The notes under the pieces: model-generated
Databases searched by the model: none
Seen by the model: only the letters and a program-made list of their open reading frames with translations
Told to the model about the DNA's origin: nothing
Translations under genes and position numbers: made by a program
Assembly (NCBI RefSeq): GCF_003334315.1
Contig: NZ_QOWR01000024.1
Source: Escherichia coli
GTDB lineage: Bacteria > Pseudomonadota > Gammaproteobacteria > Enterobacterales > Enterobacteriaceae
Strand: one strand, 5' to 3'
DNA: 64,000 nucleotides
Shown here: piece by piece, positions 30,298-51,541 of the stretch
How the letters are laid out: each line of letters starts with the position of its first letter
Numbering within the stretch: the first letter of the stretch is position 1

Positions 30298-32376
30298 TTA
30301 AATCAATGCCGATTTATCAATTCCCAGCCGCTTCATCCGTGACAGCAGGGTCGTGCGTTTCAGCCCCAGACGTTGCGCAGCGCCTTTAGGCCCGGCAACC
30401 ACGCCGTTGGTTTCTTTCAGCACGCGCACAATCAACTGATATTCATCTTCGCCCTCCAGGGCGACAACCGTTGCGGCAGGCGGCGTTTCAGGTTCCGGTA
30501 AAACAATATCTGGCAATGACAGCTGCAGCACGTTACCGCGTGTTAGCAATACCGCGCGCTCAATGACGTTTTCCAGTTCGCGTACGTTACCCGGCCACTC
30601 CATGTTGCTCAAGGTGCGCAGCGTCTCGGCAGGAATGCTGTCGATATTGCGCCCCAGACGACGGGCAATTTTGAAGGTAAAGGCTTTCGCCAGCAGCGGA
30701 ATATCTTCCGGACGCTCGCGTAGTGGCGGCAGGTGAATCGGGAATACGTTCAGGCGGTAATAGAGATCGCTACGGAACTCACGGTCGGCGACCATTTTTT
30801 TCAGATCGCGGTTAGTCGCGGCGATTAGACGCACGTCCGTCTGAATGATTTTGTTGCTGCCGAGACGTTCAAACTCCTGTTCCTGCAATACACGCAGCAA
30901 CTTCGGCTGTAACTCCAGTGGCATATCGCCCACTTCGTCGAGGAACAGGGAGCTTTTATCCGCCAGTTCAAAACGACCGATACGCTGGGCGCTGGCACCG
31001 GTAAAAGCCCCACGCTCATGACCAAACAGATCGCTTTCCAGCAATCCGGCAGGCATCGCCGCGCAGTTCATTTTGACCATGCGGCGATTATTACGCCCAC
31101 TGAGATTATGGATCGCACGGGCAATCAGCTCTTTACCCGTGCCAGTTTCACCGAGGATCAGCACGGTACTGTCACTTTGCGCCACCATTTCAACTTGTTT
31201 AAGCACGCTGTACATGGCTTCGCTGCGGCCAATAATCTCGCCAAATTCACTATCAACATTGTTGAGCTGCTCGGTCAGGGCGAGGTTTTCATCAACCAGC
31301 CGTTCTTTCAGACGATGGATTTCCTGATAGGCGAGGGCGTTATCGACAGCGATTGCCACACGTTCGGCAATCTGGCGCAGTAAATTCAGATTGGTAGTGG
31401 TAAACACTTTCTCTTCGCATTGCGCCAGTTTCAGCACGCCCAGCATGGTGTCGCCAGACATCAGCGGTAACAGGCACAAGGTTTGAATCTGGTTGCCCCA
31501 GGTGTCGAACAACATGCGTTCATAGGGGGCTAAATCGTCCCGCTCGTGGAGATTGATCAGCAGCATCTCTTTACTTTTGAACACGCGTTCGGTGAGGGTT
31601 CCGGCTTCATCGACTTCGCTCTGTTCGTGGGCGGGATGCTGTTTATCAAGATAGTGAGTGGAGTAGATGTTGAGTTTGTTTTTACGGTGGCTGCGTAAGA
31701 CGATACTGATATCGTCAATGTCGAAATAGTAATGGATTTCTTTGGCGACTTCGCTGACCAGTTCGTCCATATCCAGGCGGGAAAGCACCGCGTTGGTGAT
31801 GGCGACCAGGATGCGGAAGTTATCGCGTTCCCGGCATAACAACTCATAGTCGACATTGTTAACGACGCGGCTCTGGATTTGTTCGGTGACGACAGAAACG
31901 ATCTGCGTAAATGTTTGCAGACGATTGAACTCTTTTTCGCTCCAGGGGCGATCGTCATAACGAATAAATTCACAGCCACCAAAAATATGCCCTTCCGCCG
32001 CCAGTGGCATCAGGCAATAGTGACCAAATTTTGGGTATAGCCCACCTGCGTCCAGCTGCGGCCAGGTTTCACAAAATTCTTCGTAACTGCAATGCAGCGT
32101 ATCAGGGCGCGACAAAATGCTGCGTACCGGACCGTGTGCCAGAACAGTTTCGTCTTCATATTTAATGGGGGTGTCTTTTTCACGCGACGCGTAATAAGAC
32201 GCACGTTGAGTCTGCGCTTGCCACAACACAATAGCCGCGTTGTCGGCGAGCGCAGAACGCTTTACCAGTTGCGAAAGAGCCTCACACAGCGAGGCCAGAT
32301 CGGGCTGCTGCAATAGTGTCCGAGTGATGTCGAACAACCCTTGTTGTCCGAGATCACTCATCGGTGTATATGACAT
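30298..32376 (-). CDS. fhlA: Formate hydrogenlyase transcriptional activator FhlA (sigma-54 bEBP, 692 aa)
   Basis: N-terminus MSYTPMSDLGQQG, AAA+ sigma-54 interaction domain ([14 protein letters not shown]) and C-terminal HTH; the track ORF carries a 12-codon upstream extension. Confidence 0.95.
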   Translation of the reverse strand: MSYTPMSDLGQQGLFDITRTLLQQPDLASLCEALSQLVKRSALADNAAIVLWQAQTQRASYYASREKDTPIKYEDETVLAHGPVRSILSRPDTLHCSYEEFCETWPQLDAGGLYPKFGHYCLMPLAAEGHIFGGCEFIRYDDRPWSEKEFNRLQTFTQIVSVVTEQIQSRVVNNVDYELLCRERDNFRILVAITNAVLSRLDMDELVSEVAKEIHYYFDIDDISIVLRSHRKNKLNIYSTHYLDKQHPAHEQSEVDEAGTLTERVFKSKEMLLINLHERDDLAPYERMLFDTWGNQIQTLCLLPLMSGDTMLGVLKLAQCEEKVFTTTNLNLLRQIAERVAIAVDNALAYQEIHRLKERLVDENLALTEQLNNVDSEFGEIIGRSEAMYSVLKQVEMVAQSDSTVLILGETGTGKELIARAIHNLSGRNNRRMVKMNCAAMPAGLLESDLFGHERGAFTGASAQRIGRFELADKSSLFLDEVGDMPLELQPKLLRVLQEQEFERLGSNKIIQTDVRLIAATNRDLKKMVADREFRSDLYYRLNVFPIHLPPLRERPEDIPLLAKAFTFKIARRLGRNIDSIPAETLRTLSNMEWPGNVRELENVIERAVLLTRGNVLQLSLPDIVLPEPETPPAATVVALEGEDEYQLIVRVLKETNGVVAGPKGAAQRLGLKRTTLLSRMKRLGIDKSALI

Positions 32377-36129: not shown

Positions 36130-36180
36130 CGGTGAATAATGTCGATGATGTCGAAATGACACGTCGACACGGCGACGAAA
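36130..36180. promoter_or_regulatory. Candidate FhlA upstream activating sequences between the hyp and hyc promoters
   Basis: Repeated GTCGA / CGAAAT motifs (tgtcgaaatgacacgtcgacacggcgacgaaattc) midway between the two divergent sigma-54 promoters. Confidence 0.4.
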
Positions 36181-36224
36181 TTCATCTTTAGCTTAAAAAT
36201 CTCTTTAATAACAATAAATTAAAA

Positions 36225-36241
36225 GTTGGCACAAAAAATGC
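36225..36241 (+). promoter_or_regulatory. Sigma-54 (-24/-12) promoter for the hyc operon
   Basis: TTGGCAC-aaaaa-ATGCT with GG and GC at the canonical spacing, about 40 bp upstream of hycA. Confidence 0.7.
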
Positions 36242-36278
36242 TTAAAGCTGGCATCTCTGTTAAACGGGTAACCTGACA

Positions 36279-36740
36279 ATGACTATTTGGGAAATAAGCG
36301 AGAAAGCCGATTACATCGCACAGCGGCATCGTCGCCTACAGGACCAGTGGCACATCTACTGCAATTCGCTGGTTCAGGGGATCACGTTATCGAAAGCGCG
36401 CCTGCATCACGCCATGAGCTGCGCGCCGGACAAAGAACTCTGTTTCGTCCTTTTTGAACATTTTCGCATTTACGTCACCCTGGCGGATGGCTTTAACAGC
36501 CACACCATCGAGTATTACGTCGAAACAAAAGATGGCGAAGACAAACAGCGGATTGCGCAGGCGCAACTGAGCATTGACGGCATGATTGATGGCAAGGTCA
36601 ACATCCGCGATCGCGAACAGGTTCTGGAACACTATCTCGAAAAAATCGCTGGCGTTTACGACAGCTTATACACCGCTATTGAAAACAATGTGCCGGTGAA
36701 TTTAAGCCAACTGGTAAAGGGACAAAGCCCGGCAGCATGA
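36279..36740 (+). CDS. hycA: Formate hydrogenlyase regulatory protein HycA (153 aa)
   Basis: First gene after the divergent hyp/hyc promoter region. Confidence 0.9.
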   Translation: MTIWEISEKADYIAQRHRRLQDQWHIYCNSLVQGITLSKARLHHAMSCAPDKELCFVLFEHFRIYVTLADGFNSHTIEYYVETKDGEDKQRIAQAQLSIDGMIDGKVNIRDREQVLEHYLEKIAGVYDSLYTAIENNVPVNLSQLVKGQSPAA

Positions 36741-40242: not shown

Positions 40243-41952
40243 ATGTCTGAAGAAAAATTAGGTCAACATTATCTCGCCGCGCTGAATGAGGCATTTCCGG
40301 GCGTCGTGCTGGACCACGCCTGGCAGACCAAAGATCAGCTGACTGTCACCGTAAAGGTGAACTACCTGCCGGAAGTGGTGGAGTTTCTTTACTACAAACA
40401 GGGTGGCTGGCTGTCGGTGCTGTTTGGTAACGACGAACGCAAACTGAATGGTCATTACGCCGTTTACTACGTACTGTCGATGGAGAAGGGCACTAAGTGT
40501 TGGATTACGGTTCGCGTCGAAGTTGACGCCAACAAACCGGAATATCCGTCCGTGACGCCGCGCGTTCCGGCGGCGGTGTGGGGCGAGCGTGAAGTGCGCG
40601 ATATGTACGGTTTGATTCCGGTTGGTCTGCCGGATGAACGTCGTCTGGTGCTGCCGGATGACTGGCCGGATGAACTTTATCCGCTGCGTAAAGACAGCAT
40701 GGATTATCGTCAGCGTCCGGCACCGACCACCGATGCTGAAACCTACGAGTTCATCAACGAACTGGGCGACAAGAAAAACAACGTCGTGCCGATTGGTCCG
40801 CTGCACGTCACTTCTGATGAACCGGGCCACTTCCGTCTGTTCGTCGATGGCGAAAACATTATCGACGCCGACTACCGTCTGTTCTACGTCCATCGCGGCA
40901 TGGAAAAACTGGCGGAAACCCGTATGGGTTATAACGAAGTGACCTTCCTCTCTGACCGTGTGTGCGGGATCTGCGGCTTTGCCCACAGCACCGCCTACAC
41001 CACGTCGGTGGAAAACGCGATGGGGATTCAGGTGCCAGAACGTGCGCAGATGATCCGCGCCATTCTGCTGGAGGTAGAACGCTTGCACTCGCATCTGCTC
41101 AACCTTGGCCTGGCCTGTCACTTTACCGGCTTCGACTCCGGCTTTATGCAGTTCTTCCGCGTGCGTGAAACCTCCATGAAAATGGCAGAGATCCTTACCG
41201 GTGCGCGTAAAACCTACGGCCTGAACTTGATCGGCGGGATTCGTCGCGATCTGCTGAAAGACGACATGATCCAGACCCGCCAGCTGGCACAACAGATGCG
41301 TCGTGAAGTGCAGGAGCTGGTGGATGTGCTGCTGAGCACTCCGAACATGGAACAGCGCACTGTCGGCATTGGTCGTCTGGACCCGGAAATCGCTCGCGAC
41401 TTCAGTAACGTCGGCCCGATGGTCCGTGCCAGCGGTCACGCCCGTGATACCCGCGCCGATCACCCGTTTGTCGGCTATGGCCTGCTGCCAATGGAAGTCC
41501 ACAGCGAGCAGGGCTGCGACGTTATTTCCCGTCTGAAAGTGCGTATCAACGAAGTCTATACCGCGCTGAACATGATCGACTACGGTCTGGATAACCTGCC
41601 GGGTGGCCCACTGATGGTGGAAGGCTTTACCTACATTCCGCACCGCTTTGCGCTGGGCTTTGCCGAAGCGCCGCGCGGCGATGATATCCACTGGAGCATG
41701 ACCGGCGACAACCAGAAGCTGTACCGCTGGCGCTGCCGTGCCGCGACCTACGCGAACTGGCCGACCCTGCGCTACATGCTGCGCGGCAACACCGTTTCCG
41801 ATGCGCCGCTGATTATCGGTAGCCTCGACCCTTGCTACTCCTGTACCGACCGCATGACCGTGGTCGATGTGCGTAAGAAGAAGAGCAAAGTGGTGCCGTA
41901 CAAAGAACTCGAGCGTTACAGCATTGAGCGTAAAAACTCGCCGCTGAAATAA
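40243..41952 (+). CDS. hycE: Hydrogenase 3 [NiFe] large subunit HycE (569 aa)
   Basis: N-terminus MSEEKLGQHY, N-terminal RxCGxCxxxH and C-terminal DPCxxCxxR Ni-Fe ligand motifs; start at the ATG at 40243 (the track begins at 40222). Confidence 0.95.
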   Translation: MSEEKLGQHYLAALNEAFPGVVLDHAWQTKDQLTVTVKVNYLPEVVEFLYYKQGGWLSVLFGNDERKLNGHYAVYYVLSMEKGTKCWITVRVEVDANKPEYPSVTPRVPAAVWGEREVRDMYGLIPVGLPDERRLVLPDDWPDELYPLRKDSMDYRQRPAPTTDAETYEFINELGDKKNNVVPIGPLHVTSDEPGHFRLFVDGENIIDADYRLFYVHRGMEKLAETRMGYNEVTFLSDRVCGICGFAHSTAYTTSVENAMGIQVPERAQMIRAILLEVERLHSHLLNLGLACHFTGFDSGFMQFFRVRETSMKMAEILTGARKTYGLNLIGGIRRDLLKDDMIQTRQLAQQMRREVQELVDVLLSTPNMEQRTVGIGRLDPEIARDFSNVGPMVRASGHARDTRADHPFVGYGLLPMEVHSEQGCDVISRLKVRINEVYTALNMIDYGLDNLPGGPLMVEGFTYIPHRFALGFAEAPRGDDIHWSMTGDNQKLYRWRCRAATYANWPTLRYMLRGNTVSDAPLIIGSLDPCYSCTDRMTVVDVRKKKSKVVPYKELERYSIERKNSPLK

Positions 41953-43678: not shown

Positions 43679-44141
43679 CGTTTTACTCTGTGTTGGCAAT
43701 AGCATGATGGGCGATGATGGCGCAGGTCCGCTGCTGGCGGAAAAGTGCGCCGCCGCGCCGAAAGGTAACTGGGTGGTGATTGACGGCGGTAGCGCACCGG
43801 AAAACGACATCGTCGCTATCCGTGAACTGCGCCCGACACGACTGCTGATTGTCGACGCCACGGATATGGGGCTAAACCCCGGCGAGATCCGCATCATCGA
43901 CCCGGATGATATCGCCGAGATGTTTATGATGACTACCCATAACATGCCGTTGAATTACCTTATCGACCAGTTGAAAGAAGATATTGGCGAAGTGATTTTC
44001 CTCGGCATTCAGCCGGATATCGTCGGCTTTTACTACCCGATGACCCAGCCGATTAAAGATGCGGTAGAAACCGTTTATCAACGACTGGAAGGCTGGGAAG
44101 GAAATGGCGGCTTCGCGCAGTTAGCGGTGGAAGAAGAGTAG
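43671..44141 (+). CDS. hycI: Hydrogenase 3 maturation endopeptidase HycI (156 aa)
   Basis: N-terminus [20 protein letters not shown] is typical of hydrogenase maturation proteases. Confidence 0.93.
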   Translation: MTDVLLCVGNSMMGDDGAGPLLAEKCAAAPKGNWVVIDGGSAPENDIVAIRELRPTRLLIVDATDMGLNPGEIRIIDPDDIAEMFMMTTHNMPLNYLIDQLKEDIGEVIFLGIQPDIVGFYYPMTQPIKDAVETVYQRLEGWEGNGGFAQLAVEEE

Positions 44142-44299: not shown

Positions 44300-47190
<2,891 letters not shown>

Positions 47191-47273
47191 CGGATTTTAT
47201 CCTGTTATCAGTAGGGTAGATGTAGTTGTTATCAGTCGACGTGACGGAAAAATGCCGATGCTGAAACGGAATT

Positions 47274-47289
47274 AAGAAACCGGTTTCAC
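47274..47289. promoter_or_regulatory. AscG-type operator palindrome in the ascF-ascG divergent promoter region
   Basis: Perfect 12-bp palindrome GAAACCGGTTTC at 47276-47287; a related half-site TGAAACCGGTCAC lies at 47351-47363. Confidence 0.6.
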
Positions 47290-47449
47290 AAAATCATGAA
47301 TAGTTGTCACTAAATAAGCAAGAGAGTGAATTGTTCATTTTTTATATTTGTGAAACCGGTCACCTGAATATTTTTCCCGCCGATTGTGCAAGGACAATCG
47401 GCAAACGGTGCAGTACACTGCGTTGATTGCGTGTAAAGGGATGAAAATG

Positions 47450-48460
47450 ATGACGACGATGCTGGAAGTGGCGAAGCGCGCCGGGGTTTCAAAAGCGACC
47501 GTTTCCCGCGTGCTTTCAGGTAATGGCTACGTCAGCCAGGAGACTAAAGATCGCGTGTTTCAGGCGGTAGAAGAGAGCGGTTACCGTCCAAACTTGCTGG
47601 CGCGCAATCTGTCGGCGAAGAGTACTCAGACGCTGGGGCTGGTAGTGACCAACACGCTTTACCACGGCATTTATTTTAGTGAATTACTCTTTCATGCCGC
47701 GCGAATGGCGGAAGAGAAAGGGCGGCAGTTGCTATTGGCAGATGGTAAACACAGCGCAGAAGAAGAGCGCCAGGCGATTCAGTATCTGCTGGATCTGCGC
47801 TGCGACGCGATCATGATTTACCCGCGTTTTTTAAGCGTGGATGAGATCGATGACATCATTGACGCGCACAGTCAGCCGATAATGGTGCTTAATCGCCGCC
47901 TGCGCAAAAACAGCAGCCATAGCGTCTGGTGCGATCATAAACAGACCAGTTTTAACGCCGTGGCAGAGTTGATAAACGCCGGGCATCAGGAGATTGCTTT
48001 CCTTACCGGCTCGATGGATTCCCCCACCAGCATTGAACGTCTTGCCGGGTATAAAGACGCGCTGGCGCAGCATGGTATTGCGCTCAATGAAAAACTTATC
48101 GCTAACGGTAAATGGACGCCTGCCAGCGGGGCCGAAGGGGTAGAAATGTTGCTCGAACGTGGGGCTAAATTTAGCGCGTTAGTTGCCAGTAACGACGATA
48201 TGGCGATAGGTGCGATGAAAGCGTTACACGAGCGCGGCGTAGCGGTGCCAGAGCAGGTGTCAGTTATCGGATTCGATGATATCGCTATTGCCCCCTACAC
48301 CGTTCCGGCGCTCTCCAGCGTAAAAATTCCGGTGACTGAGATGATTCAGGAAATTATTGGACGGCTGATTTTTATGCTCGATGGCGGGGATTTCTCACCG
48401 CCGAAAACCTTCAGCGGAAAACTGATCCGCCGCGACTCACTCATTGCTCCTTCGCGATAA
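47450..48460 (+). CDS. ascG: LacI/GalR-family repressor AscG (336 aa)
   Basis: N-terminal HTH (MLEVAKRAGVSKATVSRVL) and periplasmic-binding-protein-like effector domain; reading frame intact. Confidence 0.93.
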   Translation: MTTMLEVAKRAGVSKATVSRVLSGNGYVSQETKDRVFQAVEESGYRPNLLARNLSAKSTQTLGLVVTNTLYHGIYFSELLFHAARMAEEKGRQLLLADGKHSAEEERQAIQYLLDLRCDAIMIYPRFLSVDEIDDIIDAHSQPIMVLNRRLRKNSSHSVWCDHKQTSFNAVAELINAGHQEIAFLTGSMDSPTSIERLAGYKDALAQHGIALNEKLIANGKWTPASGAEGVEMLLERGAKFSALVASNDDMAIGAMKALHERGVAVPEQVSVIGFDDIAIAPYTVPALSSVKIPVTEMIQEIIGRLIFMLDGGDFSPPKTFSGKLIRRDSLIAPSR

Positions 48461-48608
48461 ACATTGTCATCACATGTCATCGTCACTAGTGTCGATGACA
48501 TCGTTTTTCCTGCATTACAGAAATTAATTTCCTTAAATAACAGTAAATTAAAAACTGGCATGATTTGTGAATGTATCGGCGCATTAACTGTCATTGCTGG
48601 AGAATTTG

Positions 48609-49136
48609 ATGAACCGTTTCATCATTGCTGACGCGAGTAAATGTATTGGTTGCCGTACCTGTGAAGTAGCGTGCGTGGTTTCTCATCAGGAAAATCAGGA
48701 TTGTGCATCGCTGACCCCGGAAACTTTTTTACCGCGTATCCATGTCATTAAAGGTGTGAACATTTCCACGGCGACAGTTTGCCGTCAGTGTGAAGATGCA
48801 CCGTGCGCTAACGTCTGCCCGAATGGTGCTATCAGCCGTGATAAAGGGTTTGTTCATGTGATGCAGGAACGTTGCATTGGTTGCAAAACCTGCGTTGTGG
48901 CTTGCCCGTATGGTGCGATGGAAGTGGTGGTACGTCCGGTGATCCGCAACAGCGGCGCGGGTCTGAATGTACGGGCTGACAAAGCCGAAGCCAATAAATG
49001 CGACCTGTGCAACCATCGTGAAGACGGCCCGGCGTGTATGGCGGCTTGCCCGACTCATGCGCTGATTTGTGTCGATCGTAATAAACTTGAACAACTGAGC
49101 GCAGAAAAACGCCGCCGTACGGCGCTGATGTTCTAA
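48609..49136 (+). CDS. hydN: Formate dehydrogenase-H associated ferredoxin-type electron transfer protein HydN (175 aa)
   Basis: Four Cys clusters of 4Fe-4S type; [23 protein letters not shown]-terminus. Confidence 0.93.
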
Positions 49137-49288
49137 AAATCTTACAGAACTGTTCTGGCATCAAAGGAATTCCCGGAAATATTCGTAGAATACGGAGCGG
49201 GCGGTATCGCCGACCTGTGACTGCCGGATGCGACGCTGTCGTGTCCGGCAGGGCGGGTTACGCAATTCATGATGGCGGGAATAACTCA

Positions 49289-51541
49289 ATGGCAAAAAAC
49301 ACATCTTGCGGTGTCCAACTGCGTATTCGTGGCAAAGTGCAGGGCGTCGGTTTTCGTCCGTTTGTCTGGCAGCTGGCACAGCAATTAAATCTTCACGGCG
49401 ATGTCTGTAATGACGGCGATGGCGTAGAAGTCCGGCTGCGGGAAGACCCGGAAACGTTTCTTGTTCAATTGTATCAGCACTGCCCGCCGCTGGCGCGTAT
49501 TGATAGCGTCGAGCGTGAGCCGTTTATCTGGTCACAACTGCCCACCGAGTTCACTATACGCCAGAGCACAGGCGGCACCATGAATACGCAAATTGTTCCC
49601 GATGCCGCTACTTGCCCTGCTTGCCTTGCCGAAATGAATACCCCAGGCGAACGGCGTTATCGTTATCCGTTTATCAACTGTACCCACTGCGGCCCGCGTT
49701 TCACCATTATTCGCGCCATGCCTTACGACCGCCCGTTTACCGTGATGGCGGCGTTTCCGCTATGTCCGGCCTGTGACAAAGAGTACCGTGACCCGCTCGA
49801 TCGTCGCTTCCACGCCCAGCCGGTGGCCTGCCCGGAGTGTGGCCCGCATCTTGAATGGGTAAGTCATGGTGAACATGCGGAACAAGAGGCGGCATTACAG
49901 GCAGCTATCGCACAGTTAAAAATGGGCAAAATTGTCGCCATCAAAGGGATTGGCGGATTTCATCTTGCCTGCGATGCACGTAACAGTAACGCGGTGGCGA
50001 CACTTCGGGCGCGCAAACATCGCCCGGCGAAACCGCTGGCGGTCATGTTGCCAGTGGCTGACGGTTTACCAGACGCTGCGCGCCAGTTGCTTACCACGCC
50101 CGCCGCGCCGATTGTGCTGGTGGATAAAAAATACGTTCCTGAGCTTTGTGATGATATCGCCCCTGACCTTAACGAAGTCGGGGTAATGTTGCCTGCGAAC
50201 CCGCTCCAGCATTTGCTGTTACAGGAACTGCAATGCCCGCTGGTGATGACCTCCGGCAACCTGAGCGGTAAACCACCAGCTATCAGCAACGAACAGGCGC
50301 TGGCGGATTTGCAGGGCATTGCCGACGGATTTTTGATACATAACCGCGACATCGTGCAGCGGATGGATGATTCGGTGGTGCGCGAAAGCGGCGAAATGCT
50401 GCGCCGTTCGCGGGGGTATGTGCCGGATGCGCTGGCTTTGCCTCCGGGCTTTAAAAATGTTCCGCCTGTGCTGTGTCTCGGCGCGGATCTGAAAAATACC
50501 TTCTGCCTGGTGCGCGGTGAACAAGCGGTGTTGAGTCAGCATCTGGGCGATTTAAGTGACGATGGCATCCAGATGCAGTGGCGCGAAGCGTTACGCCTGA
50601 TGCAAAACATCTACGATTTCACCCCGCAATACGTTGTGCATGACGCACATCCGGGCTATGTCTCCAGCCAGTGGGCGCGCGAAATGAATCTGCCGACGCA
50701 AACGGTGCTGCATCATCATGCCCACGCAGCGGCGTGTCTGGCAGAGCATCAGTGGCCGCTGGATGGCGGTGATGTCATTGCTTTGACGCTCGACGGTATC
50801 GGTATGGGGGAGAATGGCGCTTTGTGGGGCGGCGAGTGCCTGCGGGTGAACTATCGCGAATGTGAGCACCTGGGCGGCTTGCCTGCAGTGGCGCTTGCTG
50901 GTGGCGATTTGGCGGCGAAGCAGCCGTGGCGAAACCTGCTGGCGCAGTGCCTGCGCTTTGTGCCGGAGTGGCAGAATTATCCCGAAACAGCGAGTGTGCA
51001 ACAGCAAAACTGGAGCGTGCTGGCGCGGGCCATTGAGCGTGGAATTAACGCGCCGCTGGCGTCATCGTGTGGGCGTTTTTTCGATGCAGTGGCGGCGGCA
51101 CTGGGCTGTGCGCCAGCCACGTTAAGTTATGAAGGTGAAGCGGCTTGTGCTCTGGAGGCGCTCGCAGCCTCATGCCACGGAGTGACGCATCCGGTGACAA
51201 TGCCGCGGGTGGACAATCAACTGGATCTCGCCACTTTCTGGCAGCAGTGGCTGAACTGGCAGGCACCGGTTAATCAACGCGCGTGGGCGTTTCATGATGC
51301 GCTGGCGCAGGGTTTTGCCGCGTTGATGCGTGAGCAGGCCACGATGCGTGGTATCACTACGCTGGTATTTAGCGGCGGGGTTATTCATAACCGTTTGCTG
51401 CGTGCACGTCTGGCGCATTATCTCGCTGATTTCACATTGCTCTTTCCACAGAGTTTACCGGCGGGTGATGGCGGTTTGTCTCTGGGGCAGGGGGTTATTG
51501 CTGCGGCGCGTTGGTTAGCGGGTGAAGTCCAGAACGGATAA
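49289..51541 (+). CDS. hypF: Carbamoyltransferase HypF (hydrogenase maturation, 750 aa)
   Basis: Acylphosphatase-like N-terminus ([18 protein letters not shown]), two Zn-finger CxxC pairs, YrdC-like and Kae1-like domains; start at MAKNTSCG (the track is extended 24 codons). Confidence 0.95.

Follow-up and report, generated by a model that had tools for sequence, protein, structure and literature searches.

The ascG-hydN spacer and its setting

The window, by which we mean the whole 64-kb stretch of DNA that was analysed, is chromosomal DNA of E. coli. A 451-nt query around the ascG-hydN spacer matched 5426/5426 complete E. coli genomes, where the locus is annotated as ascG followed by hydN, and the 171 nt from 48455 to 48625 are 100% identical to K-12 and were found at 90% identity or better in every one of these genomes. 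The RefSeq annotation of the identical E. coli locus gives the gene order fhlA(-), hypEDCBA(-), hycA-I(+), ascB(-), ascF(-), ascG(+), hydN(+), hypF(+), norW(-), norV(-) and norR(+), with hydN and hypF previously described as an operon (PMC6004506, PMC11841067). The spacer between ascG and hydN measures 148 bp and is wholly covered by the segment 48461-48608, which the original prediction had put forward as a possible sigma-54/FhlA-type control region. The features considered here are listed below, with genes taken from the RefSeq annotation of the identical locus (for hydN also from the list of open reading frames) and with the distal half-site and the Shine-Dalgarno motif read directly from the sequence.

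30298-32376, minus strand: fhlA, annotated as 'formate hydrogenlyase transcriptional activator'
ending at 48460, plus strand: ascG
48465-48471, plus strand: TGTCATC, putative distal enhancer half-site
48474-48501, no strand assigned: 28-bp palindrome ATGTCATCGTCACT/AGTGTCGATGACAT, an inverted repeat of 14+14 nt that is 93% complementary, putative core enhancer (UAS)
48538-48550 (-44 to -32), plus strand: IHF-like site TAACAGTAAATTA, two mismatches to WATCAANNNNTTR
48555-48571, plus strand: sigma-54 (-24/-12 class) promoter CTGGCATGATTTGTGAA, identical to the published ChIP-seq motif OS26
48582, plus strand: predicted transcription start, placed by the rule of 19 bp downstream of the motif centre (PMC4591121); 48582 + 27 = 48609, the hydN ATG
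48599-48602, plus strand: GGAG, Shine-Dalgarno motif of hydN
48609-49136, plus strand: hydN, 4Fe-4S ferredoxin-type protein, first gene of the operon
49289-51541, plus strand: hypF, carbamoyltransferase for [NiFe]-hydrogenase maturation, second gene of the operon

All of the motifs that had been described in the spacer are present, namely CTGGCATGATTTGTGAA at 48555-48571, TGTCATC at both 48465 and 48475, and GTCGATGACATCG at 48491-48503. FhlA, whose gene lies 16 kb away in the same window, is presumed to be the formate-sensing, enhancer-binding activator that acts on the region upstream of hydN.

In E. coli the asc genes (ascB, ascF and ascG; 44300-48460 in the window) sit between hycI and hydN, and an ascG-like gene is likewise found upstream of hydN in Citrobacter koseri. 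The direct upstream neighbour of hydN in Salmonella arizonae (L010 1839-2309) and Cedecea (L057 1876-2355) is hycI and not ascG, so that the asc cluster seems to have been inserted into an ancestral hyc-hydN-hypF array.

Several other repeats were observed around hydN. A perfect 7-bp inverted repeat, TGATGAA-CCGT-TTCATCA (48607-48624), encloses the hydN start codon and may be a simple by-product of the conserved N-terminus MNRFII. A REP-like palindrome, CTGCCGGATGCGAC/GTCGTGTCCGGCAG, occupies 49221-49251 in the hydN-hypF spacer; its core GCCGGATGCGRCG occurs in 5 copies, where 0.42 would be expected, and is found also after hycI/ascB (44279) and after hypF/norW (51566 and 51635). A search of 47300-49400 against Rfam matched no family.

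The sigma-54 promoter of hydN

As a reference for sigma-54 promoters we used the consensus YTGGCACGrNNNTTGCW, in which GG lies at -24 and GC at -12 with exactly 10 bases between them. At hydN the GG falls at 48557-58 (-25/-24), TGGCAT is present, and the spacing from GG to -12 is correct. The -12 position itself is A48570, giving GA and not GC. The original prediction had the -12 GC replaced by GTG, which is roughly right, although when aligned exactly it is the consensus TTGC that reads GTGA (C to A at -12 and T to G at -15). It also called the -12 match poor, and as a description this is correct: using a PSSM trained on 38 published intergenic sigma-54 sites, from which the 4 sites in this window had been left out, we obtained 10.15 bits for the hydN 17-mer, where the training sites themselves range from 9.1 to 18.9 with a median of 15.8. 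Moreover, among 42 published intergenic-sense sigma-54 sites hydN is the only one with an A at -12. The 17-mer ranks 19th of the 127,968 window positions, and about 20 equal or better matches are expected per 64 kb of first-order random sequence; the motif is not above chance and cannot be called on sequence alone. By arithmetic from the same scan, a correctly oriented match as good as this would turn up in a given 40-nt span with a probability of about 0.006. The case for the hydN promoter thus rests on its position, its conservation and the published binding data, and the predicted leader that follows from this position is 27 nt long.

Two other sigma-54-like 17-mers on the plus strand score above the hydN promoter, these being GTGGCACATCTACTGCA (36347-36363, inside hycA; 16.1 bits) and CTGGCACAACAGATGCG (41284-41300, inside hycE; 14.1 bits). 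We did not find GTGGCACATCTACTGCA in the main text of PMC4591121 or in those of its supplements that were searched, nor CTGGCACAACAGATGCG in that main text, the sole place searched for it. The former lies about 120 bp from the very strong hycA/hypA ChIP peaks, which could mask it.

Published work bears directly on this element. In the sigma-54 ChIP-seq study of Bonocora et al. 2015 (PMC4591121, Table 1) the site OS26 is CTGGCATGATTTGTGAA, assigned to hydN at a distance of 27 bp upstream; its signal is 11, expressed as fold above threshold, and its flag 'C' denotes a promoter experimentally confirmed in EcoCyc. Conservation of the OS26 score across species had already been tabulated in the supplement to that study (PMC4591121). 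Genomic SELEX with RpoN-holoenzyme gave a peak in the hydN/ascG spacer (PMC8743547), and binding of sigma-54 both in vivo and in vitro, together with promoter status, has been shown by others on the identical K-12 sequence. Additional support comes from Salmonella Typhimurium, where the orthologous site TGGCACGATTCGTGTATA was enriched 23-fold by ChIP-chip (Samuels et al. 2013, PMC3844500), with a promiscuous activator supplied, wild-type cells expressed hydN-hypF 13-fold more strongly than an rpoN mutant did (PMC3844500), and FhlA is the listed activator for the operon (PMC3844500, PMC4987338). According to a 2025 review, formate-FhlA enhances hydN-hypF expression as part of the formate regulon (PMC11841067), and the formate-dependent co-regulation with hyc that had been suggested from the sequence is accordingly documented (PMC11841067). 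The binding data, the EcoCyc confirmation, the Salmonella results and the review together bear out a sigma-54/FhlA-type control region upstream of hydN-hypF. This region is the already known hydNp, the sigma-54/FhlA promoter of E. coli K-12, and what we describe is a rediscovery and not a new promoter.

The upstream palindrome, its conservation and alternative readings

The TGTCATC/GTCGATGACA tract proved to be a 28-bp palindrome, to the arms of which both the second TGTCATC (48475-48481) and GTCGATGACATCG belong. The palindrome is unique in the window and had 0 matches in 100 shuffles, and is far beyond chance. Its centre lies at about -94.5 from the predicted start. The distal TGTCATC precedes the palindrome's own copy of this heptamer by 10 nt, or one helical turn, and the whole putative enhancer (48465-48501) spans -117 to -81. 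The palindrome is presumed to be the FhlA binding site, and the A/T-rich IHF-like site between enhancer and promoter is presumed to be a DNA-bending site.

The repeated motifs had been said to resemble the hyc UAS tract, and the density of their half-sites agrees with this. Counting YGTCR/YGACR pentamers (window mean 0.55 per 60 nt), we found clusters of at least 5 half-sites per 60 nt in only four places in the 64 kb: the hyc-hyp spacer (6), the hycA-hycB spacer (5), the region upstream of hydN (5) and a stretch inside hycI (5). The two dense tracts flanking hycA we take to be the known FhlA enhancers for hyc and hyp (Schlensog 1994, Hopper 1994). The likeness extends to the 9-mer TGTCGATGA, present in 7 copies in the window where 0.52 would be expected, with 3 of the 7 lying in the hydN tract and the two tracts that flank hycA. 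The other four copies (1986, 28382, 43515 and 61326) are outside these three half-site-dense tracts, and the excess of the 9-mer is therefore not fully explained by them. The fourth half-site cluster, in the hycI coding sequence (43801-43860), consists of CGACATCGTCG, CGACACGAC and TGTCGACG and is probably due to chance or driven by codons.

Three stricter descriptions of the enhancer were also tried. The published FhlA consensus CATTTCGTACGAAATG (Leonhartsberger 2000, as quoted in PMC4987338), taken as a contiguous 16-mer, differs from its best hydN match at 8 of 16 positions and from the hyc tracts, also poor, at 5-7; fitting neither as a contiguous string, it was dropped as a discriminator. 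The pattern YGTCR-N4-YGACR matches the hycA-hycB tract twice, but a single right-arm mismatch keeps it from matching hydN of E. coli, and it was likewise rejected. Scanning with the 11-nt arm TGTCATCGTCA at up to 2 mismatches gave no match in the hyc or fdhF tracts, and the kinship therefore lies in the pentamer half-sites and the 9-mer and not in the whole arm.

To follow the region across species we collected 80 HydN loci from separate species (L003-L082), with 165-260 nt upstream of each, which with the window make 81 Enterobacteriaceae species. We found that conservation is concentrated in islands within otherwise diverged spacers: the palindrome, GTCnTCA, an A/T-rich block, TGGCA, TG.AT at -12 and the Shine-Dalgarno motif. 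The palindrome, as TGTCATCGTCA-N4-TGWCGATGACA, is at least 90% conserved and nearly invariant in 80/81 species of more than 15 genera, with a variable 4-nt centre; it is perfect in most genera, and E. coli carries one mismatch in the right arm. The same level of at least 90% is reached by TGGCA at -24 and TG.AT at -12, compared with 60-90% for the GTCnTCA columns at the distal half-site and 90-99% for CTGGAGA around the Shine-Dalgarno motif. At the offset of the IHF-like site, the IHF consensus WATCAANNNNTTR is matched with at most one mismatch in 35/81 orthologues and exactly in 13 of the 81. The palindrome is kept upstream of hydN in Salmonella arizonae and Cedecea, where hycI replaces ascG, and the element therefore belongs to hydN.

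The -24 G sits 48-53 nt from the hydN ATG in 81/81 species. Measured from the centre of the palindrome, the -24 G lies 69-72 bp away in 50 sequences and 59-62 bp away in 30, and no sequence falls at 63-68. These two classes are about one helical turn apart, which suggests a helical-face constraint; the spacing in Klebsiella/Raoultella differs by up to 13 bp, and phasing is therefore not strict.

Within the promoter itself, none of the 81 species combines a consensus -24 with a consensus -12 element. TGGCAC or TGGCAT always occurs with TGAA or TGTA, and TGCA always with TGGAAC, TGGCTC, TGGCGC or TGGCGT, so that a non-consensus -12 or -24 is itself conserved among species, and for this reason the poor -12 at hydN does not speak against function. 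The PSSM scores of these promoters run from 8.9 to 17.0 bits, against 15-20 were both elements consensus. On a neighbour-joining tree of hydN-hypF DNA we counted about three coupled -24/-12 switches, alongside numerous single changes that never restore the full consensus. These coupled states hint at selection for a sub-optimal promoter, with three coupled events being thin evidence for it. We can only tentatively propose that selection holds the hydN promoter below consensus and that in Escherichia the palindrome perhaps serves also as an ascG terminator, a combination that we rate as somewhat improbable. If it were true, weak sigma-54 occupancy would be a tuned property, for example one that keeps HydN/HypF output low relative to hyc.

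Alternatively, the palindrome with its following TTTTT (48472-48508) could be an intrinsic terminator of ascG, instead of an enhancer or (in Escherichia) besides one: the RNA of 48472-48504 folds at -13.6 kcal/mol (z = -2.8 against shuffles) into a hairpin that begins 14 nt past the ascG stop codon and runs straight into UUUU. However, the T-run is confined to Escherichia and a handful of other species, and in most of the 80 palindrome-bearing orthologues the next 10 nt contain at most 4 T; the arms are invariant in sequence and do not covary, our terminator pattern scan did not flag the palindrome, and, as noted above, it persists in Salmonella and Cedecea with hycI as the neighbour and ascG absent. 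This conservation pattern contradicts termination as the sole role and leaves at best a secondary one, and overall we consider the terminator reading unlikely. The absence of ascG from such loci also weighs against the palindrome being an operator for AscG, the LacI-family repressor whose gene it adjoins. In its YGTCR half-sites the palindrome agrees with the tracts preceding hyc, fdhF and hyf, and these half-sites are presumably unlike a LacI-type operator with its central CG; we give this reading practically no weight.

The weakness of the sigma-54 motif, together with the caution of Bonocora et al. that many sigma-54 binding sites may never yield transcripts (PMC4591121), could be taken to mean that the site is non-productive and that hydN-hypF is really transcribed from a sigma-70 promoter. 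Our pattern scan of 48300-49400 gave 0 sigma-70 sites, however, and both the EcoCyc confirmation (PMC4591121) and the 13-fold rpoN dependence in Salmonella (PMC3844500) argue against it, as does a site lying 27 nt before the ATG and conserved in 81 species, making this reading very improbable. A further question is whether the FhlA paralogue HyfR also acts at the hydN enhancer and so ties HydN supply to hydrogenase 4. A palindrome upstream of the hyfA sigma-54 promoter, GCGACACGGGTGTCGAAT (K-12, L084 184-201), resembles the hydN core TCGTCACTAGTGTCGATG at about 12/18 positions by count, which suggests that FhlA and HyfR sites may be of one type, and HydN has been reported as a component of a Hyf-type complex in Trabulsiella (unpublished data cited in PMC11841067). 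Against this stands that the resemblance is one short alignment made by eye, and we think a role for HyfR at hydN improbable, if less so than a sigma-70 promoter.

Proposed control of hydN-hypF and comparison with known systems

Taken together, the published data and our comparisons make us highly confident that hydN-hypF is controlled, as an operon of the formate regulon, from the 148-bp ascG-hydN spacer, by the following mechanism. Sigma-54 RNA polymerase holoenzyme would wait as a closed complex at 48555-48571, while formate-bound FhlA would occupy the enhancer at 48465-48501, with the 28-bp palindrome as its core. Bending of the DNA at the A/T-rich IHF-like site (-44 to -32) would carry FhlA to the polymerase, where ATP hydrolysis by FhlA would open the promoter and allow transcription from near 48582. 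In this way the production of HydN and of the maturation enzyme HypF would go along with that of hydrogenase 3 (hyc) and with expression of the hyp genes and fdhF. In this scheme we infer that FhlA contacts the palindrome, that IHF binds and where exactly transcription starts. Our own analysis contributes the evidence on conservation, on geometry and on the relationship to the hyc tracts. A reading of the raw sequence alone had correctly picked out a control region of textbook architecture (enhancer, IHF bend and sigma-54 promoter), by which hydN-hypF is linked to the formate regulon, and we have added little that is new to it. Of practical value are the exact positions assigned to the enhancer (48465-48501) and to the IHF-like site; modest leads on the tuning of sigma-54 promoter strength and of looping geometry come from the coupled -24/-12 changes and from the existence of two spacing classes.

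Compared with hydNp as previously described (EcoCyc; Maier, Binder and Böck 1996; OS26), the element is the same, with an identical 17-mer, orientation and 27-nt distance and no difference between them. The orthologous Salmonella Typhimurium promoter TGGCACGATTCGTGTATA, bound in ChIP-chip and rpoN-dependent, is also without the -12 C, but has T and not A at this position, and hycI in place of ascG upstream (as seen at the S. enterica arizonae locus). With fdhF the likeness is in the enhancer core, the fdhF form CGTCA-AAAC-TGACG being the same as that of the hydN core in most genera, CGTCA-CTAG-TGACG, from which the E. coli right arm TGTCG departs by one mismatch. The fdhF upstream tract in K-12 is similarly dense in half-sites (6 per 60 nt, against 5 in the E. 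coli hydN tract), and the fdhF leader (41 nt) is longer than that of hydN.

The closest comparison within the window is with the hycA promoter region, which has its half-site tract at 36140-36177, an IHF-like site at 36209-36221 and its sigma-54 site at 36226-36242. An ungapped alignment of the whole hydN region with hycA gives 56/153 identical bases, about 3.3 sd above the window mean of 37.5, but unrelated windows reach 59-64, and we therefore rejected whole-region similarity; the real likeness is confined to -49 to -21, where 24/29 bases are identical. The hycA promoter differs in being near consensus (17.2 bits against 10.2 for hydN) and in its ChIP signal (91 against 11), and the hyc tract is built of TGTCG-AAA(A)-TGACA units with GAAATG spacers, whereas hydN has a compact, perfect-type palindrome without those spacers. 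Both regions nevertheless share dense YGTCR half-sites and the 9-mer TGTCGATGA, and the same three-part layout of enhancer, IHF-like site and -24/-12 promoter at the same distances: the half-site tract lies at about -113 to -76 in hycA and -117 to -81 in hydN, the leaders measure 26 nt and 27 nt, respectively, and the hycA IHF-like site TAACAATAAATTA occupies -44 to -32, the identical position to TAACAGTAAATTA of hydN.
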